Positions 26,186 to 54,724 of a DNA stretch of 56,867 bases are shown here, one piece after another. The DNA lies in contig JANOHV010000108.1 of assembly GCA_031406795.1 (NCBI GenBank), forward strand, positions 1 through 56,867. The letters are read 5' to 3'. Position 1 is the first letter of the stretch, and each line of letters starts with the position of its first letter. Origin of the DNA: Candidatus Rokuibacteriota bacterium. Its GTDB lineage: Bacteria; JAUVQV01; DATDCY01. The notes below the pieces were generated by a model. That model ran no database searches. It saw only the letters and a program-made list of their open reading frames with translations, and had not been told where the DNA came from. Both the position numbers and the translations under genes were made by a program.

Positions 26186-26503
26186 TCACTCGTCCTTTTC
26201 GAAAACGATCGTCGCGTCCTTTTCCACGTTCAGGCCGGCCTCGACCTCCAGCGCCTTGAGCACCGCCGCGGGCACCGGGCAAGCCGCGTGCTTGAGGTTC
26301 CGGCCCGCGGCGAGGTAGACGGGGTTGTTCAGGATGCCCACCAGCGCGTCGTGGCGGCCGAGCCGCGTGATCTCGGCCGCCATCTGCCGCACCATCGCGC
26401 AGCCGCTCTCCACCGAGATGTCGATCGCGCGCTGCGGCGCCTTCTTTGCCCGGATGACGGAGGTGAAACCGCACGCCCCGGACGTGACGACAACCTTGGT
26501 CAT
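26186..26503 (-). CDS. DUF6951-like small Cys/His protein
   Basis: GACGF, SGC, HAACPVP, KALEVEAGL; ATGA overlap with the ABC ATPase. Confidence 0.7.
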   Translation of the reverse strand: MTKVVVTSGACGFTSVIRAKKAPQRAIDISVESGCAMVRQMAAEITRLGRHDALVGILNNPVYLAAGRNLKHAACPVPAAVLKALEVEAGLNVEKDATIVFEKDE

Positions 26504-27354
26504 TTCGCCCTCGCTTCGTTTGGCAGGGTGCCCGGGCTCCCGGCCGCCGCACCCGGCGGTTGCAGATCGGCTTCGACCGGCGCGGTCCGCGAGTTGAGCC
26601 GCTGCTCGGCGAGAAACGCCAGCAGTTCCTTGCGCAGCGCGTTGAGCTCCGGCCCGGTCCGGTCCCGCGGCCGCGGCACCCGCACCTCGACGGACTTGCC
26701 GACGCGCGTCGGCTGCGCGGTCATGCAGACGACGCGGTCGCCGAGAAACACCGCCTCGTCCACGTTGTGGGTGACGAAGACCACCGTGGTGCGCGTGCGC
26801 TCCAGCACGTGCAGGAGCACCTCCTGCAGCGCGTTTCTGGTCTGGGCGTCCAGAGCCGCGAACGGTTCGTCCATCAGCAGCACGCGCGGCTCGACGGCCA
26901 GCGCGCGCGCGAGGGCGACTTTCTGCTTCATGCCCCCGGAGATCTGTTTGAGGTGATAACCGTCGAAGCCGGCGAGCTCGACGAGCTCGAGGCAGCGCCG
27001 CGCCGTCGCGCGCCGCTGCGCCGGGGAGACGCCGGCGAATTCGAGCCCGAGCTCGACGTTGCTCAAAACGGTGCGCCAGGGCAGCAGGGTCGTCTCCTGA
27101 GTGATGTAGCCAATCTCGCGCATGGTCCCGCTGACGACGCGGTCCCCGATGGTGACCCGCCCGCGATCCGCGCGCTCCAGCCCGGCAATGATGCGCAGCA
27201 GGGTCGTCTTGCCGCAGCCGCTGGGCCCGAGCACGCACACGATGCCGCCGTCCGGCGCCGCGAACGAAACCCCGCCGAGGATGAGCCGTCCGGCGTCGCC
27301 GCTGGTGCCCGGGAAACCCTTCTCGACCCCCTCGACCCGCAGTTCCATGCTCAT
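26500..27354 (-). CDS. ABC ATPase (SsuB/TauB/NitT type)
   Basis: GPSGCGKTT, ISGGMKQ, MDEPFAALDAQTR, VTHNVDEA. Confidence 0.92.
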   Translation of the reverse strand: MSMELRVEGVEKGFPGTSGDAGRLILGGVSFAAPDGGIVCVLGPSGCGKTTLLRIIAGLERADRGRVTIGDRVVSGTMREIGYITQETTLLPWRTVLSNVELGLEFAGVSPAQRRATARRCLELVELAGFDGYHLKQISGGMKQKVALARALAVEPRVLLMDEPFAALDAQTRNALQEVLLHVLERTRTTVVFVTHNVDEAVFLGDRVVCMTAQPTRVGKSVEVRVPRPRDRTGPELNALRKELLAFLAEQRLNSRTAPVEADLQPPGAAAGSPGTLPNEARAK

Positions 27355-28127
27355 CTCCAGCGCAGCAGCCGCCGTTCGGCGGCGCGGATCAGCGCATCCA
27401 TCGCGAAGCCGATCAGCCCGATGACCAGCATGCCGGCCACGATCTGGTCCGCGCGCTGGATGTCGCGCGCGGTCATGATCATGTAGCCGAGGCCGTAGCC
27501 ACTCTTGACGCCGGTGAACTCCGCGGCGACCAGCGTCATCCACCCGACCCCGATCGCGATGCGCACGCCCGTGATGGTAGCCGGCAGCGCGCCGGGGGCG
27601 AGCACCTTCAGGAACAGTTCACGCCTCGAGGCGCCAAGGATGATTGCCGCCTCGATCAGGCCGCGCTCGATCGCGCGCACCCCGGCGACGGTGTTGAGCA
27701 GGATCGGGAAGAACGCCCCGAGGAAGATGATGAACACGGCCGATCCGTCGCCGATGCCGAGCCAGAGAATGGCGAGAGGGACCCACGCCAGCGGCGGAAT
27801 GGGGCGCAGCAACTCGACGAAGGGGTTGACCAGCGAACGCAACCACGCCGACCGGCCCATCAGCAGCCCGAGCGGGATACCGACGGCCAGTGCCGCCACG
27901 ACGCCCCCGAGTACCCGGCGCAGACTCGCGACGCAGTGGCCAAGCAGGTGGCTGCCCGGCGGCAGGCCGCGGGTGACCATCTCGGCAAGGCCGCTCAACA
28001 CGTGCGAAGGCGGCGGCAGTCGGTTTTCGGGGATGATCCCGGCGGCGCCGAACGCCTCCCAGAGAAGGCCGGCCGCCACCAGCGGTGCCAGCTGCAACGG
28101 GAAGCGCCAGCGCCCCCCGCTCACCAT
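27351..28127 (-). CDS. ABC permease (SsuC/TauC type)
   Basis: LPPPS, RPIPPLAWVP, EAA loop, LVAAE, GLGYMI. Confidence 0.92.
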   Translation of the reverse strand: MVSGGRWRFPLQLAPLVAAGLLWEAFGAAGIIPENRLPPPSHVLSGLAEMVTRGLPPGSHLLGHCVASLRRVLGGVVAALAVGIPLGLLMGRSAWLRSLVNPFVELLRPIPPLAWVPLAILWLGIGDGSAVFIIFLGAFFPILLNTVAGVRAIERGLIEAAIILGASRRELFLKVLAPGALPATITGVRIAIGVGWMTLVAAEFTGVKSGYGLGYMIMTARDIQRADQIVAGMLVIGLIGFAMDALIRAAERRLLRWR

Positions 28128-28146
28128 GGTTTGCGGCGTCCGGACT

Positions 28147-29106
28147 TCAGGGCCGCGCGTCCTTCACCAGCCCTGCCGGATCGAGGTATTCGCGCAGAAT
28201 CGCGTCCGGGTCCGTCTCCTTGATGTAGCCCAGACGGGCCAGGTACGAGGCGTACTCGCGGACCGGCGCCCGCTCGAGCTCGGTGCGGTAGGTAATGTTG
28301 CCGAGAGCGGCCCGAACGGTCTTCTCGTCCATGCCGGTGTACTGCACGCCGATGCGCACCGCCTCCTCGGTGTTCGCGAGGATGAAAGCCGTCGCCCTGG
28401 CGTGCGCCTTGAGGAACGCCTGCACCGCCGCCGGCCGGTCGCGGGCGACGGAGCCTTCGAAGGCGACCACGCAGCAGGGGTGGCCCGGCCAGATCTGCGA
28501 GGAGGGGAGCAGAACGCGGCCGACGCCCTTCGTGACGGCCTTCGTCGCGTGGGGTTCCCAGGCGATGAAGGCGTCGATCTGGCTGCTCTCGAGCGCCGTA
28601 ATCATCTCCGGGGGCTTGACGACGATGATCTTCACCGCGCCCGCCGCGAGGCCGGCGGCCTCCAGGGCGCGGTGCAGCAAAAAGTCCTGGACACTCGCGT
28701 ACCCGGGGATCGCGACGGTCTTGCCGGCGAGGTCCTTCACCTGGCGCAGCGGGGAGTCGGCGCGTACGACGATAGCCGATCCCTCGGCATTGGCGAGGGC
28801 CGCCGCCTTCACGCTCGCCGCGCGGTTCGCCACGCCCGTGACGCTTGGCGCCATGCCCAGGTAGCCGACGTCGATGCCCTTCGACGCGAAGGCGCTCATC
28901 TCCTCGGCGCCGGCGTTGAAGATCCCCGCCGTTTCGACCTCCAGCCCCTCGTCGCGGAAGAAGCCCTTCTCGATCCCGACCCAGGCGGCAAGGTGGTGCA
29001 GGTCGCTGCGCAGGTAGCCCAGCCGGAGCTTCTCCCCGGCCGCGGCGGCCGGAGCCGCCGCGGCGAAGAGCGCAAGGGACAACAGCAGAACGACGGCTCT
29101 GTTCAT
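28147..29106 (-). CDS. ABC substrate-binding protein (SsuA/NMT1 type)
   Basis: signal peptide, EKGFF.DEGL, DLAGKTVAIP, AWEP, HPCC. Confidence 0.9.
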   Translation of the reverse strand: MNRAVVLLLSLALFAAAAPAAAAGEKLRLGYLRSDLHHLAAWVGIEKGFFRDEGLEVETAGIFNAGAEEMSAFASKGIDVGYLGMAPSVTGVANRAASVKAAALANAEGSAIVVRADSPLRQVKDLAGKTVAIPGYASVQDFLLHRALEAAGLAAGAVKIIVVKPPEMITALESSQIDAFIAWEPHATKAVTKGVGRVLLPSSQIWPGHPCCVVAFEGSVARDRPAAVQAFLKAHARATAFILANTEEAVRIGVQYTGMDEKTVRAALGNITYRTELERAPVREYASYLARLGYIKETDPDAILREYLDPAGLVKDARP

Positions 29107-29155
29107 GGTACCTCCTTCGCGGCCAATTCGCGTTGTCCCCGTATACGCGCGTGGC

Positions 29156-31132
29156 TCAGCCTTTGATCTCCACCGTGCTCCCGGCCTTGGCCAGCAGCGC
29201 CTTCACATTCGGGAACTTGTCCTTCATGTGCGGGATATGCATCGCCATCATGAACTCCCGTTCGAAGAGCGGGTCGGTGGCGATTTCCACGAACTCGACC
29301 CAGCGGGCGCGCTCGTTTGCCTCGATCCGCTTGCCGCGGTTGACCAGCGCCATGCGCGAGCCGTCCCCGGCCGCGTTGCCGACCGCATAGACCTTGTCGA
29401 GCTCGCAGTCGGGAAACAGGCCGAGCACCATCGAGGCTTCCTTGTTGATGTGGCTGCCGAAAGCTCCGGCGAGCACGACCCGGTCGAGCTTCTCGATGCC
29501 GAGCCGCTTCATCATCAGCTTGGCGCCGGTGTACAGCGCCCCCTTGGCCAGCTGGAGCGCCCGCACGTCCCCCTGCGTGATCGTGATGTCCGCGTTGATC
29601 GAGGTCTCGTCGGCCCACGCCAGCACGTACTCCGGCTTGCCCTCGACGTCCAGGCGGATGCGCGGCGTGCCCAGCGTCATGACGAAACGGCCGGACTTGT
29701 CGATGATCCCGGCCTTGAACATCTCGGCCACGACCTCGATGATCCCGGAGCCGCAGAGCCCCTTGGCCTTGACCTTCGCGACGTTGGTGTGCCAGTCGGC
29801 CTTGCCGATGACCTTGTAGCGCGGTTCGCGGGTCAGCGGGTCGATGTTGACCATCTCGATGGCGCCCGGCGCGGCGCGCATGCCGAACTTGATCTGCGCG
29901 CCCTCGAAGGCCGGGCCGGTGGCGCAGGAAGTCGAGCAGACCTTGTTGCGGTTGCCGAGCAGCAGCTCGCCGTTGGTGCCAATGTCGATGATCAGGACCA
30001 TCTCGTCCTGGTTGTACGGCTCCTCGGCGATCAGCACGCCGACGTTGTCCGCGCCGACGAAGCCGGCCTCGATCGGCAGCACGTGGATGTAGGCGCCCGG
30101 GGCGATCCGGAGCCCCAGGTCGCGGGCCTTGATGTCGAGCGAGTTCTGGACCGCCGGGATGAACGGCGAGCGGCCGATGTAGATCGGGTCCATGCCGAGG
30201 AAGATGTGGTGCATCGCCGTGTTGAAGACGATGGTCAGGTCGTCGATGACGTGCGCGCCGTTCGGGCCCTTCTTGCCGATCTCGGCCGCGACGCGGTCGC
30301 AGATGTCGTTGAGCCCCGCGATGATCGCCTTCTGCATGATCTCGAGCCCGTCGGCGTTGCTCATCGCGTAGGTGATGCGGCTCATGACGTCTTCGCCGTA
30401 GGGCACCTGGGGGTTCATGATCGACTCGGTGCTCACCACCTTGCCGGTGTCCAGGTCGGTCAGGTAGCCAACGCAGGTCGTGGTGCCGATGTCGACGGCC
30501 AGCCCGTAGCTCTGCTCGACGAAGCCCGGCTCGACCTTGATGATCTCCCGATCCATCCACACGGTTGCCGTGGCATTCCACTCGCCCTCGCGCAGCACCG
30601 TCTGCAGGTTGCGCAGCGCCAGGAAATCGAAGGTCAGCCCGGTCAGCCCGTAGTTGTCCTTCAGGGACTGGAGCACCCGCTCGTAGTCGCCGACCGTCAT
30701 GTCGTGCAGGGTCGGCGGCGTCAGCACGATGTTGTACTTCTTCACCGCCGGGTCGAGCGCGATCGTCAGCTCCTTGGCTGCCTTGCGCACGATCTGCTTG
30801 CCGGCGCGCGAGCGCTCCGGCACGAAAACCTTGATGTCGCCGTGGATCTCGGCGTTGCAGGAGAGACGGATGCCGGGCCCGTCCTCGGGCTTGATGTGCT
30901 TGCGCTCGGAGTCGGTCAGCGGCGAGAGGTGCGCCATGCCCGACTCGATGTTGTCTTTCTCGAAGTACCCCTCTTCGATCCGCACCTTGCACTTGCCGCA
31001 GACCTTCTTGTTGCCGCAGAGGCCCTCGATGTCGACGCCGAGCGCCTGTGCCGCCTCGAGGATGGTCTTGCCCTCCTCGACTTCGCCCCGGCGGCCCGAG
31101 GGCTGGAAAATCACCTTGTACTTCTTGGTCAT
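29156..31132 (-). CDS. RACo/ASKHA (DUF4445) ATP-dependent corrinoid reductive activator 1
   Basis: N-terminal [2Fe-2S] CG....CGKC...RLSC; VDIGTTT, DIGTNGE, CATGPAFEG, GLCGSG, AGAFG, GNAA. Confidence 0.92.
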   Translation of the reverse strand: MTKKYKVIFQPSGRRGEVEEGKTILEAAQALGVDIEGLCGNKKVCGKCKVRIEEGYFEKDNIESGMAHLSPLTDSERKHIKPEDGPGIRLSCNAEIHGDIKVFVPERSRAGKQIVRKAAKELTIALDPAVKKYNIVLTPPTLHDMTVGDYERVLQSLKDNYGLTGLTFDFLALRNLQTVLREGEWNATATVWMDREIIKVEPGFVEQSYGLAVDIGTTTCVGYLTDLDTGKVVSTESIMNPQVPYGEDVMSRITYAMSNADGLEIMQKAIIAGLNDICDRVAAEIGKKGPNGAHVIDDLTIVFNTAMHHIFLGMDPIYIGRSPFIPAVQNSLDIKARDLGLRIAPGAYIHVLPIEAGFVGADNVGVLIAEEPYNQDEMVLIIDIGTNGELLLGNRNKVCSTSCATGPAFEGAQIKFGMRAAPGAIEMVNIDPLTREPRYKVIGKADWHTNVAKVKAKGLCGSGIIEVVAEMFKAGIIDKSGRFVMTLGTPRIRLDVEGKPEYVLAWADETSINADITITQGDVRALQLAKGALYTGAKLMMKRLGIEKLDRVVLAGAFGSHINKEASMVLGLFPDCELDKVYAVGNAAGDGSRMALVNRGKRIEANERARWVEFVEIATDPLFEREFMMAMHIPHMKDKFPNVKALLAKAGSTVEIKG

Positions 31133-31854
31133 GCCACACTCTCCTCGCAGGAAAAAGGGGACAGATTTATTTTCTCGACAGTTCGCGGTCGAACTTCCGG
31201 CGGCGGGGGGGCAGAAAATAAATCTGTCCCCTTTCTCCGCCCGTAGGGGCAGACGGTGATGCACAGTCCGCAGTTGGGCTTGCCCGCCACCTGGCGCTTG
31301 GTCGCCTTGTGCCCGCGGCACTCGCCGAGGCGCACCAGTTCGACGAAGGGGTTCCCGCGCGACCACTCCGCGCCGGTGATCGCCTTGGAGGGGCAGTGGT
31401 CGCGACAGAGCGTGCACGCCCCGCACCCGCTCACCTCGAACGGACGGTCGGACACGAGCGGCGCGTCGGTGAGCACCGTGACCAGCGACAGCCGCGGCCC
31501 GTGCAGCGGGCTGATCAGCAGTCCGTTCTTGCCGACCCAACCGATCCCCGCCGAGGTCGCCGCCATCTTGTGGTTGAACAGCGCGTAGAGCTTCGAGACG
31601 AACGTATCCTGCTTCCGGTCCGAATCCGGCGGCACGGCGAGCGTGCGGTACCCCCGCGCCTTGAGCGACCTCACCGTGCGCTTCTGCAGCCGCGCCAGGA
31701 TCCCGAGCGTGTCCTCGTTGAGCCGGCGCGCGACGCCGATCGAAACCGCCCGATCCAAATGGGCGATCTCGGCGCCGAGGTGGCCGGTGAGGACGGCGAA
31801 TCCCACGACCGCCGCCCCCTGCGCGAGCAGTTCGTCCCGGAGCACTTCGTTCAT
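31129..31854 (-). CDS. QueG/reductive-dehalogenase-like 2x[4Fe-4S] protein
   Basis: HKMAATSAGIGWVGKNGLLI..GPRL.L.TVLTDAP, CGACTLCRDHCP, CGLCITVCP. Confidence 0.8.
   Translation of the reverse strand: MNEVLRDELLAQGAAVVGFAVLTGHLGAEIAHLDRAVSIGVARRLNEDTLGILARLQKRTVRSLKARGYRTLAVPPDSDRKQDTFVSKLYALFNHKMAATSAGIGWVGKNGLLISPLHGPRLSLVTVLTDAPLVSDRPFEVSGCGACTLCRDHCPSKAITGAEWSRGNPFVELVRLGECRGHKATKRQVAGKPNCGLCITVCPYGRRKGTDLFSAPPPPEVRPRTVEKINLSPFSCEESVA
31154..31234. repeat. palindromic REP/MITE-like element with 22-bp perfect arms inside a CDS
   Basis: AAAGGGGACAGATTTATTTTCT (31154-31175) and AGAAAATAAATCTGTCCCCTTT (31213-31234). Confidence 0.9.
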
Positions 31855-32543
31855 TTCGCCTTTTTGGCCTCGGCCTCGTCCTTCATCTGCTTGAGCGAAC
31901 CGATCATGTTGATCGCGTCCTTGAGCGCGTTGGTTGCGTCCTTGGCGTAGCCGTCGGCGCCGTACTTGTCGGCGACGTCCTGCGACACCGGCGCTCCGCC
32001 GATCATGATCTTGATGTTGGGGTTCTTCTTGCGCAGATCGTCGATGACCTTCTTCATGCCGGTCATCGTCGTCGTCATCATCGCCGAGAGGCAGACCAGG
32101 TCGGAATCGGTCCGGATCTGCTCCTCGAGAAACTTGTCCAGCGGCACGTCGCGGCCCAGGTCGTAGACCTGGAACCCGGCGACGTCGAACATCATCTTGA
32201 CGATGTTCTTGCCGATGTCGTGCACGTCACCTTCGACCGTGCCGATGACAACCGAGCCCCGGACACCGAGGTCCATCTGCTGCACGTGCGGCTTGAGGAT
32301 GTCCAGCCCGGCGTACAGCGCGTCCGCGCACATCAGCAGCTCGGGCACGAAATACTCCTGCGCCTCGAACATCTTCCCGACCTCGACCATGCCGCTCACG
32401 AGGCCGTTGAAAATCGCATCGTTCGCGTTCATGCCGACGGCCAGCACCTCCTGCGCGGCCTCCTTGACGGCGTCCTCGTCGTACGCGATGACGGATTTCT
32501 TCAGCTTCTCGAGCAGCTCGGTCTGTTTCTCAGCGGTGGCCAT
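31851..32543 (-). CDS. methyltransferase cognate corrinoid protein 1
   Basis: cap domain EYFVPE; GDVHDIGKN (DxHxxG), SAMMTTT, IGGAP. Confidence 0.93.
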   Translation of the reverse strand: MATAEKQTELLEKLKKSVIAYDEDAVKEAAQEVLAVGMNANDAIFNGLVSGMVEVGKMFEAQEYFVPELLMCADALYAGLDILKPHVQQMDLGVRGSVVIGTVEGDVHDIGKNIVKMMFDVAGFQVYDLGRDVPLDKFLEEQIRTDSDLVCLSAMMTTTMTGMKKVIDDLRKKNPNIKIMIGGAPVSQDVADKYGADGYAKDATNALKDAINMIGSLKQMKDEAEAKKAK

Positions 32544-32545
32544 GA

Positions 32546-33583: not shown

Positions 33584-33638
33584 GCATCCTCCTTGTCGTC
33601 GCAGTTGTGTTTAAAGTTGTTTCGTTCGACAAGAGTCC

Positions 33639-34586: not shown

Positions 34587-34746
34587 TCTGGCTCTCCTCG
34601 TTTCGAAGCTGGTGAACGATGCGGCCGTTGGTTGCGGCCGCTGAACAAGACCCGCGGGCAACCGCCGCCCCCGGGCCTTGTTCAGCAGCCTGTCCTGCCG
34701 CGCAAGGGGCCGGGGGAGGCCGCTCGCCCCCCCCGGCGCTGATGCT

Positions 34747-35187: not shown

Positions 35188-35332
35188 CGTTCGCTCCTTT
35201 GGTTTCCCGCCGGCCCCATGCCGCGCGGTTCGGGTGTTGTTCGTTTCGCCCGTACTGCCACGACTTTCACGACCCCTGGCAACACATCCGCTCCTGTGCC
35301 GCTCTCACCCCCATTCAAGAGGTTTCAGCCGG

Positions 35333-46722: not shown

Positions 46723-46751
46723 GGTGTCGGCCGTCCTCTTCGCCTGGCGCC

Positions 46752-47768: not shown

Positions 47769-47838
47769 GTCCTGCCTCCTGTCATGAGTTTTGTCGCTCG
47801 GTTCATGCCAGTCATGATCGCCGCGGCGGAGCGCCCGG

Positions 47839-47878
47839 ACAATCGGGGAAACCCTGATTGTGGGGGAGGGAATACCCT
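47839..47878. promoter_or_regulatory. palindromic operator candidates upstream of module 2
   Basis: ACAATCGGGG-AAA-CCCTGATTGT (one mismatch) followed by AGGG-AATA-CCCT. Confidence 0.5.
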
Positions 47879-47907
47879 AGCAATAAACTAGTGACTGGTC
47901 CGAAGGT

Positions 47908-48924
47908 TCAGCTCTCGTCGGCGGCTTCGAGAAAAATTTCCACGTTCTGTCGCGGCGTGTCGACCGGCAGGTCGCAGGAGGGCATCAGAATGTACCTCAG
48001 GCGCGGGTCGGCGACCTGACGGACGCACGCCGCGACCCCGCGGCGGATCGCCGCCCCGCCGCCGCGTGCGAGGAGCGCGACCGCATCGACATTGCCGGCG
48101 GTGACGGTCGATCCGCGGTAAAGATCGTACGCCTCCTCGATGCCGACGCTGCAGTCGACCGAGATGCAGTCGGCCCGGGCTTCGAGATACCGGGGAAGCT
48201 GATGCCGGATCTGTCCGCACATGTGCAGGATCGAGCGGACGCCGCGACTGCGGACGTGGTCGAAGAGCTCGCGCTGCCAGGGCAGAACGAGTTCCTGGTA
48301 GGACTCGTCGGGTATCAGCGTCACCGCGCCGTCCGGCACCGAGATGCCGTCGATCAGGCCGCGGTCGATCAGTCGGTCGAAATAGCCGGCCGCGAGCTGC
48401 GCCCCCAGCGCCGCGACCGCACTGACGAACGGCGGATCGGCGGTCAGCTTCTCCCGCAGCAGGTTCGGTTCGCAGAGGATCATGCCCCAGGAGAGTGGAC
48501 CCCACGAGGTTGCGCAGAGGAAGCGATCCGGGAGGTTGGCCCGCACCCCTTCGATCACCCGGACGAGGGCGTCGGTGGCCGGCGAGGGCAGCGGGGCGGC
48601 CGCTTCGGCCCGCACGAGATCCGCCGTCGAGCGGATCAGCGGGCGCTCGAGCAGCGGAGCTCTCCGGCCGTCGAAGCGCAAATCGCCGCCGATCGACTGC
48701 GCCGGGAAAGAGTTGAGCCCGGACCCGACGAAAAGCAGGTCGGTGTCGAGCCCGTCGTAGATCGCGGACAGCGCGTCGACGAACCGCCCGGGATAGTCCG
48801 GCAATTCCGCGGGGAGCAGCCCCGCCTGGGCGAAGGCCCAGAGCCCCCCGCCGAAGATCGCGCGCGGCAGACGCTCCTGCCGCAAACCGTCGAACGCTCC
48901 GGCGATCAACCCCCGGCGATCCAT
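47908..48924 (-). CDS. divergent UroD-fold methyltransferase-like protein (related to 35333-36376)
   Basis: FGGGLW, FVGSGLNSF, WGP, HMCG, GNVD, PSCD. Confidence 0.82.
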   Translation of the reverse strand: MDRRGLIAGAFDGLRQERLPRAIFGGGLWAFAQAGLLPAELPDYPGRFVDALSAIYDGLDTDLLFVGSGLNSFPAQSIGGDLRFDGRRAPLLERPLIRSTADLVRAEAAAPLPSPATDALVRVIEGVRANLPDRFLCATSWGPLSWGMILCEPNLLREKLTADPPFVSAVAALGAQLAAGYFDRLIDRGLIDGISVPDGAVTLIPDESYQELVLPWQRELFDHVRSRGVRSILHMCGQIRHQLPRYLEARADCISVDCSVGIEEAYDLYRGSTVTAGNVDAVALLARGGGAAIRRGVAACVRQVADPRLRYILMPSCDLPVDTPRQNVEIFLEAADES

Positions 48925-48965
48925 CCGATCATTCTCCCGCTGGCGCAGGCGGTCTGCGACGCTGT

Positions 48966-49613
48966 CTAGAGCGAGGTCAGACCTTCACGGATCGCGTACT
49001 TGGTCAGTGCCGCGATGCTGTGGATGTCGAGCTTCGTCATGATGTGCATCCGGTGCGTTTCGACCGTCTTGACGCTGACATTCAAGTGGGCCGCGACTTC
49101 CTTGGTCGTCTTTCCTTCGGCCATCAGCTGGAGAACTTCCCGCTCGCGGTCGGAGAGGAGCGAGAATACAGAAGCATCGGTTTTCGCGCCTTTCCTGATG
49201 TAATCCTCCAACACGACCCCGGCGATGCCGGGGCTGAGATAGATCTTGCCCTTGGCGATCGTCCTGATCGCCGTGATGAGTTCCTCGAAAGCACAGTCTT
49301 TCAGCAGGTAGCCGGATGCGCCGGCCTTGAGCATCTCGGAGACGTACCTCTTGTCAGAATGCATGGACAACGCCACGACTTTGACCCCCTGCGCTTCCGC
49401 GAGGATCTGCCGGGTCGCCTCGATGCCGTTGAGCTCGGGCATGGCAATATCCATGACCACCACGTCCGGGGAAAGCGCCCGGGCCAGCTGCAGAGCTTCC
49501 CTCCCGTCTTCCGCCTCGCCGACGACCAGGATGTCCGGGTCTTTTTCGAGCAGGTTACGGAGCCCGTCTCTGACGATCTTGTGATCGTCGGCCAGCAGTA
49601 TCCTCAGCTTCAC
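48966..49613 (-). CDS. NarL/LuxR-family response regulator
   Basis: ILLADDH, VVMDIAMP, GYLLK, LSDREREVLQL..G HTH. Confidence 0.95.
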   Translation of the reverse strand: MKLRILLADDHKIVRDGLRNLLEKDPDILVVGEAEDGREALQLARALSPDVVVMDIAMPELNGIEATRQILAEAQGVKVVALSMHSDKRYVSEMLKAGASGYLLKDCAFEELITAIRTIAKGKIYLSPGIAGVVLEDYIRKGAKTDASVFSLLSDREREVLQLMAEGKTTKEVAAHLNVSVKTVETHRMHIMTKLDIHSIAALTKYAIREGLTSL

Positions 49614-51946
49614 GGGGCGTTCTCCTGCGTCGGCGTGGCTGTCGGAGCCAGCGGGGAGGTGACCGTGATCCGCGTGCCCCCGCCCGGGGAGGCCTGGATC
49701 TCGAGATTTCCGCCGAGATATTTGAGTCTTTCCCGGATGCTGAAGAAGCCGTACGTGATGCGATCGCCGATGGCCGTGGTGTCGAAGCCGATGCCGTCGT
49801 CCTCGACCGTGATGAGCAGCCGTGTTCCTTCCCGGCGAAGCTGGGTGAGCACCTGATGCGCCTGGGAGTGCTTGACGATATTCATGTACAGCTCGCGGAC
49901 CACCTGAAACAGCAGGATGCTCATCTCCCGGGTCAGGGGTTTGGGCTGCCGGTCGTTGTCGCAGGAGAACAGGATGTAATGCTGCTTCTGCGTCTGTTCG
50001 GAGAGCCATTCGACCGCCGCCTCGAATCCGAGTTCGTAGAGAATGGGGGGACTCAGCTCGAAGGTCAACGACTTGGTGTACCTGATGGTCTTCTCGATCA
50101 GCGCCCGGATTTCGTCGATCGGCTCGGTATGTCCGCGGTCGCAGGAGTCTTTGAGCGCCCCGAGCCTGATCTTGGTGATCGCCAGCGTCTGGCCGATGTG
50201 GTCGTGGATCTGCGTGGCGATGCGGCGTCGTTCACTCTCTTCGGCGAGCGAGAGTTCGGAGGTCAAAGCGCGCAGCTGCTCCTGATAGAGCTTGAATTTC
50301 TCCTCGGCCCGTTTGCGCTCCGTGATGTCCCGTTGAATCGAGACGAAATGCGAGACTTTGCGCCTCTCGTCCCGCAGGGGGGTAATCTGCCACTCGACGT
50401 CGAAACGGCTGCCGTCCTTGCGATAGGCGGCGGTCTCGAGATAGAAGGCCTTGACGTCGGCCGAGCCGGCCTCGAACTTCGTCCAGACCATGCCTTCGGG
50501 TTCCGGGCCCTGGAGGATCAGCGAGGGCTTCCCGAGGACCTCGTCGGGCGTGTAGCCCGTCATCTTCGTGAAAGCGGCGTTCACGAACACGATCTTGGCC
50601 GCCGGACGCGCGGGGTTCGCGGTCGTGATGACGATCGAGTCCCTGGCCTGCTGGATGGCGGCCTGGAGCAGCTGAAGCATCTCCTCGGCGCGCTTCCTCT
50701 CGGTGACATTGTTGAAGAATTCGAGCGAGGCGGGCCGGCCCATCCAGGTCATCAGCACGGAGTTGACCTCAAGCCACCTGACGGTCTTCTCCCGGTCGAT
50801 GATCCGGCACAGATAGAAGTGCGGCAAGCTGTCCCCGCGCAGGCGCCGCAGGTGCCGCTCCCGGACGAAATCCCGGTCGTCCGGGTGGATGAAGTCGGTG
50901 AATGGCTGCGATTGCAGCTCTTCGGGCGTACAGCCGAAGATCTTGGCCGCCTTGGGATTCGCGTACTTGAAGTAGTCATCCTGGGTGACGACGATACCTT
51001 CATTCGCGTGTTCGACGACCATCCGGTATTTCTCTTCGGAGACCCTGACGATCTGTTCGGTCCATTTGCGCTCGCCGATCTCCTGCTGCAGTTCCTCGTT
51101 CGCGCGGGTCAGCTGTTTCGTCCTGATCCGGACCTCCGACTCGAGGTGGGCGCGGCACTCTTCCAGAAGCTTCTCGTGTTTCTTCTGTTCCGTGCAGTCA
51201 TTGCCGATGCAGAGGATTTCGCCGACGCTGATGCCATCCCGGAAGAGCGCCCGATTGGTCCAGGCGATCCAGGCCCGCTCGCCGCCCTTGCGGATGCTCT
51301 CGTCCTCGAGGTTTTCGTACGGCTCCGGGTGCTTCTCGATCTCCTGGTACATCAACCCGAGCTTGCGCTCGCGCTCTGCCGATTCAGGGAAGATCGTGCC
51401 GAGCACATTTCTGCCGACGATCTCCTCCTCCGCATAGCCGAAAAACTTCTGCGCGAACGAATTGAGAAAAAGGATGGTGCCGGCCATGTCGATGCGCATG
51501 ATGATGCTGTTGGCGCTCTCGACGAGTTCGCGATACTTCGCCTCGCTCGCCCTGAGGGCGCTGCGGGCCTGCTTCTGGTTGGTGATGTCCTCAACCGTGC
51601 AGATCATGCCGTCGTAGTGCCCGGCCTTCACCTTCGGGATGAGCCAGCCCGACTGGAAGGTCTGCCGGCCCGCGGGCGTCACTACGGGGACTTCGGCGTA
51701 ATGCACCGGCTTCAGCGTCTCCTTGGCCTCAAGGTAATGGAGGTTGAAAGCCTTCGCCGCCAGCTCGGCGGCCTTGCTGAAGACCCGCGAGCCGATCAGC
51801 CGCTGCTGGGTCACGCCGGCAATCATCTCCATCGCCCGATTGGCGTAGCGGATCACGTCATCCCGGTCGGCCGCCCAGACGCCGGAGGTGATGCCGTTCA
51901 TGATGCTCTCGTACAGTTCCCTGCTGATCTGGGGCGCGTTACCCAT
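49610..51946 (-). CDS. cytoplasmic multi-PAS histidine kinase (HisKA_3)
   Basis: four PAS units, ERRRIATQIHDHIGQ H-box, NIVKHS, DDGIGF; no TM segment. Confidence 0.92.
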   Translation of the reverse strand: MGNAPQISRELYESIMNGITSGVWAADRDDVIRYANRAMEMIAGVTQQRLIGSRVFSKAAELAAKAFNLHYLEAKETLKPVHYAEVPVVTPAGRQTFQSGWLIPKVKAGHYDGMICTVEDITNQKQARSALRASEAKYRELVESANSIIMRIDMAGTILFLNSFAQKFFGYAEEEIVGRNVLGTIFPESAERERKLGLMYQEIEKHPEPYENLEDESIRKGGERAWIAWTNRALFRDGISVGEILCIGNDCTEQKKHEKLLEECRAHLESEVRIRTKQLTRANEELQQEIGERKWTEQIVRVSEEKYRMVVEHANEGIVVTQDDYFKYANPKAAKIFGCTPEELQSQPFTDFIHPDDRDFVRERHLRRLRGDSLPHFYLCRIIDREKTVRWLEVNSVLMTWMGRPASLEFFNNVTERKRAEEMLQLLQAAIQQARDSIVITTANPARPAAKIVFVNAAFTKMTGYTPDEVLGKPSLILQGPEPEGMVWTKFEAGSADVKAFYLETAAYRKDGSRFDVEWQITPLRDERRKVSHFVSIQRDITERKRAEEKFKLYQEQLRALTSELSLAEESERRRIATQIHDHIGQTLAITKIRLGALKDSCDRGHTEPIDEIRALIEKTIRYTKSLTFELSPPILYELGFEAAVEWLSEQTQKQHYILFSCDNDRQPKPLTREMSILLFQVVRELYMNIVKHSQAHQVLTQLRREGTRLLITVEDDGIGFDTTAIGDRITYGFFSIRERLKYLGGNLEIQASPGGGTRITVTSPLAPTATPTQENAP

Positions 51947-52208
51947 GGCTGCGAATTCCTTGCCACGTTCGGAGCGCCCCGGCGCAGAAGAAGTCCTCTG
52001 CCTTTCTATACGAGCTCGACAGCAGCGGGGGGTTGCCCACCTTCATGGCGATCATAGTATACGAAATGCTGCGAAATGCCGCCCGCCGTTCGCAACCCGC
52101 CTCTTACCACAGTTTCCCGGCCGACACCATGATGCGAATCATGCCGCTTTGACGGATTTGAGTTATGTTGTTCGCGGGAGATGTCGTACAGGCGAAAAAG
52201 GGGGCACC

Positions 52209-54128
52209 ATGCAGACGAAACACTCGGTCATGAAGAAGCACCATCAGGATACCCAGAGCCATCAGATCCATCAGGCCGTCGTCAGCCAGGGCATGGGCAC
52301 GGTTTTCGAGCGCTTCGAAGCCCAGCAGCCGCAGTGCGGCACCTGCAAGCAGGGCCTGAGCTGCCAGCTCTGCTCGGATGGTCCCTGCCGGATCAGCTCG
52401 AAGGCGCCCCTCGGGGTCTGCGGCGCCGGCGGCGACGTCATCGTCGCCAGAAATCTCCTCCAGCTGGCCGCGATCGGCACCGCCGCCAACACCTATCAGT
52501 GCCGCAACCTGGCGCTGACCCTGAAGGCCATCGGTGAAGGCCGCTCGCCCCTGAAGCTCAGAGATGCCGGCAAGCTCCAGAGAATGTGTCAGGGACTCGG
52601 CTGGGACCAGACCCGGCCGGAGAACGAACTCGCCGTCCGGTTCGCGGACTTCATCCTCAACGAAATCGGCAAGCAGAGCGGCGAACCGCTGGTGCTGATG
52701 GATTTGTTCGCCGTCGACAAACGCAAGGAGGTCTGGAAGGCGCAGGGCCTCTATGCGGGCGGGCCGAGCGCCGAGATCCTGACGGCGCTCACCAAGTGCA
52801 TGACCAACATCAGCAACGATCCGATCGACTTGATGAAGACCGCGCTGCGGCTCGGCCTCGCCAACGAATATGCCGGGCTCTGGGGCATTACCGTCCTGCA
52901 GGACATCCTGCTCGGCACCCCGGAACTGGTCGAGGGCAACGCCAATATCGGCTGCCTCGACCGGGCCACCGTGAACATCGTCGCCAACGGCCACCAGCCG
53001 GTCTTTGCCGGGCACATCATGGAAAAGGCCGCCGGCGCCGAGTTTCAGGCCGCCGCGAAAGCTGCGGGGGCAACCGGCATCAAGCTCTACGGTTCCCTGT
53101 GCGAAGGCCAGCAGCTCATGAACGTCTCCGGCAAAGGCCCCGCCCGGGAGATTTTCGGCGGACAGCTGGGCAACTGGATCCAGGAGGAGCTCGTCATCGC
53201 CTCCGGGCTGGTCGACCTGTTCCTGATGGATCTGAACTGCTCGGTCCCGACGCTCAAGGATTTCGCCGACAAGTACGGGACCAAGCTGATCAGCACCGAC
53301 CCGGTGGTGCGTTTCACGGGCGTGGAAGCCGTCGATTTCAACCCGGAACGGGCGGACGAGCAGGCCGCGCGCATCCTGAGGGAGGCCATCGAGCAATTCA
53401 GGAAGCGCAAGGCGGACACGAAGCGGATCGTCAATCTGCCGGCGGAAAGCCGGGGCGCGGCCTGCATCGCCGGCTACACCACCGAGACCGTGCTCACCAT
53501 GTTCGGCAACAGCATCCACACCTACATCGAGGAGATGAAGCGCGGGAACATCAAGGGCGCGGTGGCGGTCGCCGGCTGCACGAACGTCCGCCATGACCAG
53601 GGGGGGCGGTCGATCCAGCGTCTGACCCTGGAGTTGATCAGACGCGACATCATGGTCATCGGCGCCGGATGTTGCTCCTCCACGCACCAGAACCTCGGCA
53701 TGTCCACCCGGGAGATGGCGAAACAGGCGGGGCCGAAGCTCCGGTCGGTCTGCGAAAAATACGACGTGCCGCCGGTCGTCTCCTACGGTTCCTGCACGGA
53801 CGTCGGCAAGATCCTGGACACGGTGGCGGCGCTGGCCTGGACCATCGGGTGCGACATGAGCGATCTGCCGGTTGCCGCATCGGTGCCGGAGTACATGGAG
53901 CAGAAGGCGATTGCCGATATCTTCACCGCCCTCGCCTGCGGACTGCTCACCCACGTCTCCCCCGAGCCGATGATCAGCGGCAGCCGCTTGGTGCGGAAAT
54001 ATCTGACCGAAGACCTGGTGAACGTGACCGGCGGGAGGATGCTGCTGCAGGATGACCCGGTCAAAGCCGCGGACGAAATCGAGTCGCACATCATGGCGAA
54101 GCGCAAGGGAATCGGGTTCGACGTGTAA
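52209..54128 (+). CDS. cooS: divergent Ni-CO dehydrogenase (CooS family)
   Basis: FERFEAQQPQC, CQLCSDGPC..GVCGA, NGHQP, LCEG, DLNC, AGCTN, GAGC, GSCTD, EQKA. Confidence 0.88.
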   Translation: MQTKHSVMKKHHQDTQSHQIHQAVVSQGMGTVFERFEAQQPQCGTCKQGLSCQLCSDGPCRISSKAPLGVCGAGGDVIVARNLLQLAAIGTAANTYQCRNLALTLKAIGEGRSPLKLRDAGKLQRMCQGLGWDQTRPENELAVRFADFILNEIGKQSGEPLVLMDLFAVDKRKEVWKAQGLYAGGPSAEILTALTKCMTNISNDPIDLMKTALRLGLANEYAGLWGITVLQDILLGTPELVEGNANIGCLDRATVNIVANGHQPVFAGHIMEKAAGAEFQAAAKAAGATGIKLYGSLCEGQQLMNVSGKGPAREIFGGQLGNWIQEELVIASGLVDLFLMDLNCSVPTLKDFADKYGTKLISTDPVVRFTGVEAVDFNPERADEQAARILREAIEQFRKRKADTKRIVNLPAESRGAACIAGYTTETVLTMFGNSIHTYIEEMKRGNIKGAVAVAGCTNVRHDQGGRSIQRLTLELIRRDIMVIGAGCCSSTHQNLGMSTREMAKQAGPKLRSVCEKYDVPPVVSYGSCTDVGKILDTVAALAWTIGCDMSDLPVAASVPEYMEQKAIADIFTALACGLLTHVSPEPMISGSRLVRKYLTEDLVNVTGGRMLLQDDPVKAADEIESHIMAKRKGIGFDV

Positions 54129-54154
54129 CCACGTTCGACGGTTCGGTGGCGGCA

Positions 54155-54724
54155 ATGGAAAAAGAAGGCGCGATTTTCATCAGCTGCGGCATATTTGCGG
54201 AGGAGATCCGTTACCTCGTTCGGGAAGGGCTCTTCCCGGGGAACGTCGTGTTTCTCGACGCCGCGCTGCACGTGAATTTCGACAAGCTGAAAGCCCGACT
54301 CGAGCAGGCCCTCGAGGCGGCAAAGCCTGCCGGCGCCGCGCCACGAGTCATCTACGGCCATTGCCATCCGCAGATCACGGAAATCCTCGGGCGTTTCGGG
54401 GCGAGGAAGCTGGCGGCGGGCAATTGTCTGGAGGCCCTGGTCGGGGCTGACGAGATCCAGCGGCTCAATGCCGAGGCGACGAGCTTCTTCCTGTCCGCGG
54501 GCTGGGTGAACAACTGGGAGAAGATGTTCGAAATGGGCCGGGCGGATTTCGGCTTCGACTTCAAGTCCATGTTCGAGCACTACCGGCGAATCGTCGTGTT
54601 CGACACCGGCATCATTCCGCTGGACGAAGAGAAGATCCGGAAGTTCAGCGCCTTCACCGGCCTGCCGGTCGAGCGAAGGACGATTACCCTGGATTATTTC
54701 CTGGGGCTCGTCAGGAGCATCTGA
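54155..54724 (+). CDS. DUF1638-like protein
   Basis: ISCGIF..E, ALH..FDKL, YGHCHP, NCLE.L.G, FFLS.GW. Confidence 0.8.
   Translation: MEKEGAIFISCGIFAEEIRYLVREGLFPGNVVFLDAALHVNFDKLKARLEQALEAAKPAGAAPRVIYGHCHPQITEILGRFGARKLAAGNCLEALVGADEIQRLNAEATSFFLSAGWVNNWEKMFEMGRADFGFDFKSMFEHYRRIVVFDTGIIPLDEEKIRKFSAFTGLPVERRTITLDYFLGLVRSI

Follow-up and report, generated by a model that had tools for sequence, protein, structure and literature searches.

Two conserved tandem operons for corrinoid-dependent methyl transfer in a Candidatus Rokuibacteriota genome, with a possible tie to a coenzyme M-like thiol

Several described corrinoid methyl-transfer systems offer points of comparison for the locus reported here. 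The available text of Kountz & Balskus (PMC10418091) presents the mlp clusters as sets of MtaA-like proteins (Mlps) with a corrinoid protein and a RACE activator and with no folate methyltransferase; it argues for a methyl-sulfur or methyl-selenium role from a His-Cys-Cys site tied to sulfur and selenium substrates, from genomic context and from one enzyme assay, and it cites Niess & Klein (2004) for the SdmABC system of Methanococcus. The available portion of Price et al. (2017, 10.1101/192971) describes a split form of the methionine synthase MetH which requires DUF1638 and a RamA-like protein, while the available accounts of the mec and CdmBCA systems state that mec has no homologs of more than 35% identity outside a few Peptococcaceae and that CdmB is zinc-free and close to the O-demethylases. 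COG0523 subfamily 13 is described as adjoining corrinoid methyltransferase genes in the part of Haas et al. (2009) available to us. We have compared these systems with a 56,867-nt stretch of DNA (hereafter the window), contig JANOHV010000108.1 of the Candidatus Rokuibacteriota bacterium assembly GCA_031406795.1, in which positions 26186–51946 hold two independently conserved tandem operons, A and B, both on the minus strand, and not one 28-kb system.

A single two-module corrinoid methyl-transfer system had been proposed in a preliminary description of this DNA. Its gene inventory is borne out by Pfam and NCBIfam scans, which recover five methyltransferases (MT1–5), an MtrH-like enzyme, two corrinoid proteins (CoP1 and CoP2), two RACo activators and all of the accessory proteins listed. 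The corrinoid chemistry and the two modules also stand; the modules are nevertheless separate operons, and MT2 belongs to the one containing the MtrH-like enzyme. As the overall guanine-plus-cytosine (GC) content of the window is 60–70%, reading frames were chosen by third-position GC, and 42 open reading frames (ORFs) were scanned against Pfam and 29 against NCBIfam. Several of the longest ORFs (those of MT2, RACo1, CoP1, MtrH, CobW and the response regulator) carry spurious arginine-rich N-terminal extensions, and an arginine-rich 116-aa ORF at 36823–37173 was taken as spurious, the real gene being the receiver-like one in another frame at 36412–36741, which the preliminary description had missed. 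The genes are listed below in the order of transcription.

Operon A, 37305–51946, minus strand:
49610–51946, minus: sensor histidine kinase with four PAS domains (Pfam HisKA_3 and HATPase_c)
48966–49610, minus: LuxR/NarL-type response regulator (Response_reg and GerE at residues 137–339 of a long ORF running to 50009; true start near 49610)
47908–48924, minus: MT5, a divergent URO-D/MtaA-fold methyltransferase and paralog of MT2 (Pfam URO-D, E 4.6e-35)
46752–47768, minus: MT4, an SCMT-like (MtaA-like) methyltransferase with which the operon A core begins (NF004889, 249 bits, cut-off 244)
46105–46722, minus: CobW/COG0523 GTPase of about 205 aa, G domain only (Pfam cobW, E 4.6e-36; ORF runs to 47010)
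45689–46108, minus: conserved 139-aa protein of no family, an alpha+beta sandwich (23 orthologs aligned; model with a predicted local distance difference test score, pLDDT, of 90.6)
44823–45653, minus: CbbQ/NorQ-type MoxR AAA+ ATPase (Pfam AAA_5 and CbbQ_C)
42124–44823, minus: 899-aa NorD/CbbO-like VWA protein whose first 590 or so residues form a unique region (residues 595–897 match NorD 9qhd_G, E 3.3e-52)
41871–42116, minus: 81-aa zinc-ribbon-like protein with eight conserved Cys/His (alignment of 28 sequences)
41186–41860, minus: DUF2284 protein (Pfam, E 5e-43) with seven invariant Cys and one invariant His
40072–41133, minus: MT3, a divergent MtaA-fold methyltransferase on the Mlp2 side (Pfam URO-D; cassette orthologs 62–90% identical)
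39374–40213, minus: CoP2, corrinoid protein (B12-binding_2 and B12-binding; DxHxxG as DVHDLG); start not fixed, as B12-binding_2 begins at residue 65 of a 279-aa ORF which overlaps the end of MT3
37305–39260, minus: RACo2, reductive activator of corrinoid proteins (Pfam Fer2, RACo_linker, Raco_middle and RACo_C_ter; 514 bits to the AcsV model, below its cut-off of 800)

Operon B, 26186–36741, minus strand:
36412–36741, minus: single-domain receiver-like protein of 109 aa, first gene (57% identical to L085:7801–8133, itself a Pfam Response_reg match at E 2.2e-9)
35333–36376, minus: MT2, an MtaA-fold methyltransferase on the Mlp2 side (Pfam URO-D at residues 154–492 of a long ORF; start fixed at 36376, the extension up to 36826 being spurious)
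34747–35187, minus: CMD/AhpD-like protein with CSPRC (Pfam CMD, E 5.5e-6)
33639–34577, minus: MtrH-like corrinoid:pterin methyltransferase (NF002142, 320.5 bits, cut-off 287; MtgA model, 145 bits; ORF continues to 34880)
32546–33583, minus: MT1, an SCMT-like methyltransferase (NF004889, 281 bits, and TIGR01463, 268 bits, both above cut-off)
31851–32540, minus: CoP1, corrinoid protein (Pfam B12-binding_2 and B12-binding; DxHxxG as DVHDIG)
31129–31854, minus: 241-aa Fe-S protein related to QueG and reductive dehalogenases (TIGR02486, E 1.6e-15, and TIGR00276, E 2.1e-15, far below the cut-offs of both)
29156–31130, minus: RACo1, reductive activator (Pfam RACo domains at residues 146–780 of a long ORF continuing to 31540)
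26500–29106, minus: ATP-binding cassette (ABC) importer, with the binding protein at 28147–29106 (TIGR01728, the SsuA sulfonate family, 186.7 bits, cut-off 163.5), the permease at 27351–28127 and the ATPase from 26500 to about 27300 (best models SaoP and SaoA for the last two, both below cut-off)
26186–26500, minus: DUF6951 protein of 104 aa, last gene (Pfam, E 1.7e-27)

Divergent from the kinase gene:
51888–54724, plus: anaerobic carbon monoxide dehydrogenase (CODH) catalytic subunit (to 54128; TIGR01702, 629 bits, cut-off 478) and DUF1638 protein (54146–54724; Pfam), followed by cbiJ and cbiG

Both gene orders recur in other genomes, so that the co-location noticed earlier is conserved within each operon, and both arrangements are far from chance. 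The refuting condition named in the preliminary description, a co-location conserved nowhere else, thus does not apply. For operon A we compiled 40 loci, six from the NorD-like protein in species genomes and 34 from the alignment of MT3 orthologs (L, G, C and P numbers are our own for loci, genomes, contigs and database proteins; L003/L006/L020/L033, L001/L024, L004/L025, L002/L035 and L005/L040 are in each case the same contig). The fixed order MT4, CobW, 139-aa protein, NorQ, NorD-like protein, 81-aa protein, DUF2284, MT3, CoP2 and RACo2, in some loci preceded by the PAS kinase and LuxR regulator, is at least partly kept in 33 of the 40 (several being one contig twice), and MT3 stands without the cassette in seven (L014, L018, L032, the short contigs L017/L036 and the Firmicute-side contig ends L052/L058). 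MT4 orthologs in cassette loci are 65–87% identical, a kinase ortholog lies upstream of MT4 in most Nitrospirota loci, and the regulator is conserved in several; RACo2 is followed in some loci by CODH, DUF1638 (CODH and/or DUF1638 in L016, L030 and L039, for example) or an MT2-like gene. MT5 is not part of the conserved core, as among 120 fetched Nitrospirota-type loci a relative (50% identical) was found only in L100. No MtrH-like or other folate methyltransferase gene is within reach in any of the operon A cassette loci, which tells against a single system spanning both operons.

The MtrH-like protein of operon B has 218 relatives in species genomes, mostly Nitrospirota, and our counts cover the best 80 of these, with a gene scored as present when matched at an identity of at least 40%. 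The recurrent order is receiver-like protein, MT2, CMD protein, MtrH-like enzyme, MT1, CoP1, Fe-S protein, RACo1, in some cases the ABC importer, and DUF6951. MT1 is present in 79 of the 80 loci, CoP1 in 74, the CMD protein in 73, MT2 in 70, RACo1 in 66, DUF6951 in 60, the receiver-like protein in 54, the Fe-S protein in 53 and the importer in seven; it is because of this recurrence that MT2 is assigned to the MtrH operon and not to the NorQ/NorD module. The CMD protein is among the best conserved (63–97% and mostly 80–97% identical), and operon B is single-copy in most holders, with two matches in only two of 73 genomes. Upstream of operon B in other genomes (e.g. L133:4218–8068) we also observed a sigma-54 response regulator (36/80 loci), a GAF/PAS kinase (25/80) and a divergent full-length CobW gene, at the place which operon A occupies in the window.

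Downstream of operon B, the same 80 loci often carry genes which connect it to coenzyme M. A cysteate synthase is encoded in 52 and a fused sulfopyruvate decarboxylase in 45, and these two enzymes are given as the signature of the Methanosarcina-type coenzyme M pathway in the available text of PMC12068725. In L133 the cysteate synthase scores 464 bits against TIGR03844 (cut-off 325) and the two halves of the decarboxylase score 221.9 bits against TIGR03846 (221.5) and 174.9 bits against TIGR03845 (148). An HdrD/TfrB/DsrK-like CCG Fe-S protein (Pfam CCG and Fer4 domains) is found downstream in 52 loci, and a DsrM-like membrane protein (a weak NCBIfam DsrM match) in 49. Cysteate synthase is present in 35 of 40 operon-B genomes compared to none of 40 other Nitrospirota genomes (the former taken in list order from the 73 holders, without G007 and the partial G118, and the latter consisting of 25 with and 15 without a PF02574 match), in four of five operon-A genomes, and among 14 control genomes only in Methanosarcina. 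G041, G050 and G096 account for three of the five operon-B genomes lacking it, and all three belong to the five holders matched by PF02574. In the window's own genome, which is 99.9% complete, homologs of the synthase and decarboxylase (63% and 57% identical) are adjacent on contig C277, outside the window. The literature searched, as far as its text was available, contains no paper on coenzyme M in these bacteria.

Around the C277 pair (3000–17000, L141) lie a ThiF-family gene, DsrE, OsmC, an NMT1-like binding protein and a split sigma-54 regulator, and on contig C68 (1–12000, L142) a DsrM/HdrD-like pair is accompanied by two TauE/SafE exporters, a pyridine nucleotide-disulfide oxidoreductase and DsbD. 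These neighbours may include the missing thiol-forming and disulfide-reducing steps.

Operon B is also linked to a gap in methionine synthesis. Profile searches of the window's own genome found no MetH, no MetE (PF01717) and no PF02574 homocysteine domain, and the MetH model matched only the two corrinoid proteins of the window and an AcsE-like pterin domain on contig C42; with the homocysteine-binding PF02574 unmatched, operon B is itself no member of the MetH family. The genome has a COG1900 homocysteine-synthesis-type gene. Both PF02574 and PF01717 are missing from 68 of the 73 operon-B genomes compared to 128 of 328 other Nitrospirota (Fisher p 8e-19, with kinship ignored). Because MetH and MetE are absent from most of its holders, we propose that operon B may act as a split methionine synthase replacing both, in which the MtrH-like enzyme would correspond to the pterin domain, CoP1 to the B12 domain, RACo1 to the reactivation function, and MT1 or MT2 to the zinc-dependent thiol-methylating part. 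Neither MtaA nor MtrH is mentioned in the available text of two methionine synthase papers (PMC7857596 and PMC13759103). The links to coenzyme M genes and to the lack of MetH and MetE were both missed in the preliminary description, and they make a thiol-cofactor or biosynthetic role at least as likely as the catabolism of outside methyl groups.

The family placement of the methyltransferases points in the same direction. The zinc motif H-x-C...C noted earlier is invariant in all five (alignment A1; H243, C245 and C321 in MT1 numbering) and, again as described before, no member of the MttB, MtaB or MtmB families was found among the window ORFs scanned against Pfam and NCBIfam. All five match PF01208 (E 5e-74 to 5e-35, MT5 covering profile positions 60–345 only), but against TIGR01463 (cut-off 235.4, given as 235 when rounded) only MT1 scores above the cut-off with 268 bits, and MT4 (224), MT2 (186), MT3 (115) and MT5 (64) fall below. 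MT1, which is 49% identical to MT4, exceeds the cut-offs of the 'methylcobalamin:coenzyme M methyltransferase' and MtaA/CmuA subfamilies; none of the five reaches the MtaA (400) or MtbA (600) equivalog cut-offs, MT1 scoring 253 bits against the former. Searches of solved structures with MT2, MT3 and MT4 matched only MtaA 4ay7 (E 1.3e-43 for MT4) and uroporphyrinogen decarboxylases. A search of 50%-identity representatives with MT1 gave 4213 matches at E <= 0.001, and among 127 of the best 150 (those of at least 300 aa) scanned against NCBIfam, five were labelled as MtaA equivalogs and one as an MtbA equivalog.

We placed these proteins in a FastTree phylogeny of 167 rows rooted with the genome's own UroD homolog, leaving out short fragments and fusion proteins; this is a quick tree with deep forks partly unresolved, and its reference Mlps come from one species, Clostridium ljungdahlii, and were assigned by gene order alone. 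MT1 and MT4 form sister clades in a large branch (support 98) with MtaA, MtbA, Mlp3 and a long Mlp1 branch, where they lie outside the Mlp3 clade and next to the Mlp1 branch (support 89). The MT5 sequence is sister to the MT2 clade (support 100), and MT2 with MT5, and the MT3 clade (support 100), group with C. ljungdahlii Mlp2 in the second deep branch, though not within its four-row clade. From these positions it follows that both operons combine a single MtaA-like enzyme with one or more enzymes of the Mlp2 side. Over its full length, MT3 shares about 50% identity with proteins of C. ljungdahlii, C. kluyveri and Acetobacterium, and its identity to a Heliobacterium protein is 56%. In 18 Firmicute loci its ortholog stands between a corrinoid protein and CobW (or a CobW_C remnant), after which come DUF1638, a methyltransferase, RACo and a further methyltransferase. 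A second C. ljungdahlii cluster fits the mlp order (CobW fragment, Mlp1, Mlp2, corrinoid protein, Mlp3 and RACE). The genome of this species (G001) has fourteen URO-D-family matches in at least three clusters, one of them with an in-frame TGA (C36:271173–271766) and possibly a selenoprotein form.

Since all five methyltransferases keep His-Cys-Cys and are nearest to MtaA, thiols or selenols are favoured over methoxy compounds as substrates. Of the substrates suggested in the preliminary description, methylated sulfur compounds stay viable, methyl halides are still conceivable, and methoxy compounds appear unlikely from the His-Cys-Cys site and the match to MtaA 4ay7. A natural fusion of 662 aa (P0244), with an MtrH domain at residues 8–288 and a URO-D domain at 326–659 which is 54% identical to MT1, suggests that MtrH and MT1 act together; together with the subfamily score of MT1 and the sulfonate-type importer, it would fit a thiol of the coenzyme M type. 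P0283 and several other database proteins have a methyltransferase domain fused to a B12-binding domain, as in CmuA.

The nearest described relative of operon A is the mlp/Sdm cluster type. Operon A shares with type 1 mlp clusters and SdmABC the His-Cys-Cys methyltransferases, the one corrinoid protein, the one RACE-type activator and the lack of a folate methyltransferase, as well as an occurrence in anaerobes with the selenocysteine trait, and CobW-type genes lie near the C. ljungdahlii clusters in which the MT3 orthologs of about 50% identity are found. In contrast to the mlp clusters, operon A adds the NorQ, 899-aa NorD-like, zinc-ribbon, 139-aa and DUF2284 proteins in a fixed order, its MT4 and MT3 fall outside the C. 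ljungdahlii Mlp3 and Mlp2 clades, and its hosts are metagenome-assembled genomes (MAGs) of Nitrospirota, Nitrospinota and Desulfobacterales, not Firmicutes; CobW, DUF1638, DUF2284 and AAA proteins are not mentioned in the main text of PMC10418091 as available to us. Operon B is set apart by its MtrH-like enzyme, which mlp clusters lack.

In comparison with MtaABC/MtsAB and Mtr of the methanogens, the region shares MtaA-like thiol methyltransferases, corrinoid proteins, an ATP-dependent activator, an MtrH-type enzyme and Methanosarcina-type coenzyme M genes, but it differs in its bacterial host, in the absence of methyl-coenzyme M reductase, in the replacement of membrane-bound Mtr by a soluble MtrH-like enzyme that has a corrinoid protein of its own, in a carrier which is probably tetrahydrofolate, and in that MT1 and MT4 remain below the MtaA and MtbA equivalog cut-offs. 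Operon B resembles the split MetH of Price et al. in its separate folate, B12 and thiol-methylating proteins, RamA/RACo reactivation, DUF1638 nearby and a missing fused MetH; it is unlike it in using the MtaA fold and not PF02574, an MtrH-like enzyme and not the MetH pterin domain, and in that its role is deduced from gene absence only. A two-component regulator, several URO-D-fold methyltransferases, a corrinoid protein, an MtrH-type enzyme and RACo with DUF1638 are shared with the published descriptions of mec and CmuAB/CdmBCA. Going by the same descriptions, the kinase here is of the PAS/HisKA_3/HATPase_c type and not PocR, no MecJ-type cation transporter is found among the ORFs scanned, and the window methyltransferases keep the zinc site that CdmB lacks. 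All five are His-Cys-Cys enzymes; for the aromatic O-demethylases (MtvB/OdmB/VdmB), PMC10418091 gives zinc ligands that are partly carboxylate or missing. Finally, NorQ/NorD and CbbQ/CbbO provide close homologs of the ATPase and of the C-terminal 300 aa of the 899-aa protein, including its metal ion-dependent adhesion site (MIDAS), but here neither a nitric oxide reductase nor a Rubisco gene lies in the neighbourhood, the remaining N-terminal part of some 590 aa is unmatched, and the genes lie among methyltransferases with CobW.

As the work of Haas et al. (2009) and Price et al. (2017) describes CobW and DUF1638, these two are not new companions of corrinoid methyltransferases; the NorQ/NorD-like pair, DUF2284, the two small proteins, the CMD protein and DUF6951 are, as far as our searches reach. 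The earlier suggestion of an undescribed gene set therefore stands in that we found no paper with the same set, and falls short for these two components. Literature searches for DUF2284 with corrinoid returned nothing beyond a selenoprotein review, and those for NorD with corrinoid protein and uroporphyrinogen decarboxylase nothing beyond a chance match to 'Nordisk'.

These observations suggest a model in which both operons transfer methyl groups by way of corrinoid proteins to and from thiol-type substrates and are tied to a coenzyme M-like sulfonated thiol, and we regard this as quite possible while stopping short of calling it probable; what we infer within it is which substrates are used, which way the methyl groups flow, that operon B acts as a methionine synthase and which protein the NorQ/NorD machine serves. 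Operon B would be a coenzyme M-type thiol methyl-transfer hub joined to folate: RACo1 would keep CoP1 in the Co(I) state, perhaps with electrons from the QueG-like Fe-S protein, and CoP1 would exchange methyl groups with tetrahydrofolate through the MtrH-like enzyme and, by way of MT1 (MtaA-like) and MT2 as zinc enzymes, with two thiols. One of the thiols might be coenzyme M or a close analogue, synthesised elsewhere by the products of the adjoining genes or imported here by the sulfonate-type ABC system, and the other might be homocysteine, in which case operon B could be the methionine synthase of genomes without MetH and MetE. In operon A, under the probable control of the PAS kinase/LuxR pair, MT3 would demethylate a methyl-sulfur or methyl-selenium compound and load CoP2 with the methyl group, which MT4 would hand on to the thiol cofactor while RACo2 reactivates CoP2. 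In one of these proteins, a metal or cobamide centre would be built or mended by the CobW GTPase, NorQ, the NorD-like adaptor, the zinc-ribbon protein and DUF2284.

A number of our findings weigh against this model. CmuA, which acts on methyl chloride, keeps a similar zinc motif, and the His-Cys-Cys rule for sulfur and selenium substrates rests on one preprint. The window itself holds no coenzyme M genes, the coenzyme M synthase (MMP16/ComF, COG1900 with a ferredoxin insert) was not found beside cysteate synthase on C277, and the single PF01837/COG1900 gene of the genome is on C191, away from the others, where it may serve homocysteine synthesis; because this step was not located, the thiol could be other than coenzyme M, and cysteate synthase and sulfopyruvate decarboxylase could serve other sulfonate products. 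Methyl-coenzyme M reductase is absent from the window's genome, which leaves the fate of a methylated cofactor unexplained. The anticorrelation with MetH and MetE is confounded by relatedness, with MAG completeness not reported, and the 128 of 328 genomes lacking both families have no operon B; furthermore, five of the 73 operon-B genomes do have a PF02574 match (a short stand-alone frame of 326–337 aa in the two for which the match is listed). Outside the Nitrospirota, operon A occurs without an operon B ortholog: the idea that it always needs operon B holds in the Nitrospirota sample, is weak in a Nitrospinota genome where the only MtrH homolog is 42% identical, and fails in a Desulfobacter MAG which has neither an MtrH-like match nor cysteate synthase. 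The fold matches of DUF2284 (Z 8–9) and of the 139-aa protein (Z about 6 to YjiA) are also within the range of chance.

The layout of operon B (substrate methyltransferase, corrinoid protein, MtrH-type enzyme and activator) is a classic one, and the region might instead be one catabolic pathway in which the methyltransferases strip methyl groups from an outside methylated sulfur, methyl halide or methoxy substrate and the MtrH-like enzyme passes them to tetrahydrofolate, to be oxidised or assimilated through the Wood-Ljungdahl pathway. The presence in the same genome of acetyl-CoA synthase and of the AcsE-like pterin domain on C42 would suit this, as would the CODH gene adjoining operon A, a methyltransferase count similar to that in the available description of mec, and the importer and two-component system which suggest an outside substrate. 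We nonetheless consider it rather unlikely, as no operon A locus has a folate methyltransferase, the importer is rare (7/80), the His-Cys-Cys site fits methoxy substrates poorly and the adjoining coenzyme M synthesis genes are left unexplained, while an operon that is mostly single-copy, and whose holders lack MetH and MetE in 68 of 73 cases, looks more like a core function.

Operon A could also be a type 1 mlp/Sdm variant, independent of operon B, which demethylates methyl-selenides or methyl-sulfides for selenium or sulfur salvage and passes the methyl group to a thiol to be lost or recycled. Its make-up of several His-Cys-Cys MtaA-like methyltransferases, one corrinoid protein, one RACE-type activator and no folate methyltransferase is that of Kountz & Balskus, and MT3 is about 50% identical to the C. 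ljungdahlii protein clustered with Mlp2-like and Mlp3-like proteins, a CobW remnant and DUF1638; against this, MT4 and MT3 stand apart from the Mlp3 and Mlp2 clades in the tree, and the available main text of that preprint names neither the NorQ/NorD-like pair nor DUF2284 or the small proteins. The window's genome has the selenocysteine trait (tRNA-Sec, selD with TGA, and selA), selD is present in all five cassette genomes tested, and relatives of the CobW, DUF2284 and AhpD domains include selenoproteins, but the trait is common in such anaerobes and thus weak evidence, no in-frame TGA was seen in the cluster genes, and operon A is always accompanied by operon B in the Nitrospirota sample; on balance we think this explanation unlikely. 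Detoxification of metals or metalloids (arsenic, mercury or selenium) by methylation or demethylation, with the helpers and a Sao-like importer handling organometallics, would accommodate the best ATPase and permease models, SaoA and SaoP of the 'Sec-assisted organometallic' system, and the fusion of DUF2284 and AhpD domains to arsenite methyltransferase in other organisms. It seems very improbable given that the Sao-type matches are all far below the family cut-offs, that no ArsM, MerB or HgcAB is found among the ORFs scanned, and that the MtrH link, the coenzyme M genes and the MetH/MetE pattern would go unexplained.

NorQD, CbbQO and COG0523 proteins are chaperones, and it is by analogy with these that we read the CobW, NorQ, NorD-like, zinc-ribbon and DUF2284 set as a putative assembly line for a metal or cobamide centre. 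The NorQ-type ATPase scores 377 bits against CbbQ 5c3c and 341 bits against NorQ 9qh4, has the Walker motif and is 75–93% identical to its orthologs, while the NorD-like protein has its MIDAS as DMSYS at residue 716; an AAA_5 and CbbQ_C ATPase thus adjoins a C-terminal VWA/MIDAS protein homologous to NorD, as in a NorQ/NorD pair. None of the known client genes of NorQ and CbbQ (norB/norC and Rubisco) is found among the window ORFs or the recognised genes of the cassette loci. The N-terminal region of about 590 aa has no match in homology searches, and for this region and the 139-aa protein the ESM Atlas returned nothing but unnamed clusters and one weak CobT lead (rank 22, score 0.91). The CobW G-domain protein has a Walker A motif (GYLGSGKT) and CICC, a CxCC metal motif, and matches the G domain of the Firmicute CobW genes adjoining MT3 orthologs (hhalign probability 99.6%), but its ORF has no CobW_C domain. 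The neighbouring 139-aa protein is possibly the split-off C-terminal domain, to judge from its model: the best Foldseek match is YjiA 4ixm_A (E 4e-4) and VIA aligns it with YjiA 214–318 at Z 5.9, where unrelated domains score up to Z 8.6. A sequence relationship with CobW_C was rejected (hhalign probability 2.7%), and Pfam at E up to 5 gave nothing usable. For the 81-aa protein, the zinc-finger matches in Pfam at E up to 5 were weak (best E 0.0045).

The invariant residues of DUF2284 (C49, C54, H56, C63, C164, C167, C170 and C179) follow the patterns C-x4-C-x-H-x6-C and C-x2-C-x2-C-x8-C. Its model has a nitroreductase-like fold (pLDDT 71.8, with the Cys loops of low confidence), for which Foldseek gave no match at E <= 1e-3 and VIA matched the cobalamin-binding cores of NpRdhA (Z 8.9; 138 aligned residues, root-mean-square deviation 4.4), QueG (Z 8.3) and MMACHC (Z 7.3). 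As the operon B Fe-S protein with its QueG and reductive dehalogenase model matches stands at the same relative place, both operons may carry a small RdhA/QueG/CblC-like protein beside the corrinoid protein, although direct homology between the two was not shown (BLASTP E 0.46).

Selenocysteine read-through was considered for the cluster and rejected, as ORFs translated with TGA as U gave no convincing in-frame TGA gene between the operons. A TGA in the L005 ortholog of DUF2284 occupies a position that is not conserved; further genes of that contig are split as well, and the TGA was taken as an assembly error or pseudogene. On this 903-kb Nitrospirota MAG contig (L005/L040) the CbbQ and NorD-like genes are also split and the MT3 region has stops, so the cassette is either a decaying copy or affected by errors of long-read assembly. 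This MAG also contains an intact MT3 copy standing alone (L018), and its operon B (L093) lies about 13 kb from the cassette.

Operon A is much rarer than operon B. The NorD-like protein has 121 database relatives at E <= 1e-10, with all named ones from MAGs or metagenomes (Nitrospirota/Thermodesulfovibrionales, Ca. Sulfobium, Nitrospinota and Desulfobacterales) and identity falling sharply below about 50%. In a sample of 401 Nitrospirota genomes, the NorD-like protein was matched in 12 (E <= 1e-100) and the operon B marker in 73 (E <= 1e-90), and all 11 strong NorD-like holders also had the marker (G288, a 35% match, was left out), so that within this sample operon A depends on operon B. The full-length NorD-like protein is found in one of the six genomes which the collection searched has for the window's phylum, the window's own, and the GC content is 0.60–0.65 over about 32–54 kb compared to 0.68–0.70 in the flanks; operon A therefore looks like a rare, horizontally acquired cassette. 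The GC drop extends over both operons and fits a lower-GC donor such as the Thermodesulfovibrionales, whose proteins are 81–95% identical.

To a specialist the unexpected features will be the tie of operon B to coenzyme M genes and to the lack of MetH and MetE, and the NorQ/NorD-type machine inside a methyltransferase cassette. Methanogens use coenzyme M to carry methyl groups, and in aerobic alkene oxidisers it serves as a cofactor. The fullest form of our proposal holds that anaerobic Nitrospirota and this organism make or import coenzyme M for a soluble, folate-linked corrinoid hub, which would correspond in bacteria to the Mtr/MtaA network of methanogens but form no methane; that one MtaA-fold enzyme of this hub is a new type of methionine synthase in place of MetH and MetE; and that a NorQ/NorD machine with CobW and an RdhA/QueG/CblC-like Fe-S protein matures their corrinoid methyltransferases. 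Taken as a whole we would call this doubtful. If true, a folate-linked coenzyme M-type system in Nitrospirota involved in sulfate and sulfur cycling would be a third setting for coenzyme M, the MtaA-like genes of bacterial MAGs would have to be interpreted differently, and the operon A machinery would be the first NorQ/NorD-type AAA+ machine to mature a corrinoid methyltransferase system. Operon B is a candidate for the missing methionine synthase of a large group of sediment and groundwater bacteria, the NorQ/NorD-like pair with CobW and DUF2284 may be a new compact client system for the loading of metal or cobamide centres by MoxR-VWA proteins, and DUF2284 and DUF6951 gain a context in which they can be tested.

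Among sequencing runs, the DNA holders are freshwater sediment metagenomes, and five RNA runs contain only 0.05–0.07 of the sampled words. Elsewhere in the window, a long Mfd/TRCF ORF (5388–9302, minus strand) with a weak C-terminal match to glycine reductase GRDB is probably over-extended in this high-GC DNA, and a PIN toxin and Phd/YefM antitoxin pair (14205–15049, minus strand) lies within a cluster of branched-chain amino acid ABC transporter and AMP-ligase genes. Just upstream of the methyl-transfer cluster, a gene at 21882–22874 (plus strand) encodes a protein in which DUF3786 is combined with an N-terminal Fe-S domain resembling the one in the gamma subunit of acetyl-CoA synthase, next to a thioesterase-like gene and a class I/II aminotransferase (20126–22029). 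Between the housekeeping flank and operon B are a gene of the YgbA_NO family ('nitrous oxide-stimulated promoter'; 24643–25050, plus strand) and a PilZ gene (25063–25404). As nitrous oxide inactivates cob(I)alamin enzymes, the placement of the YgbA_NO gene beside operon B may not be due to chance.

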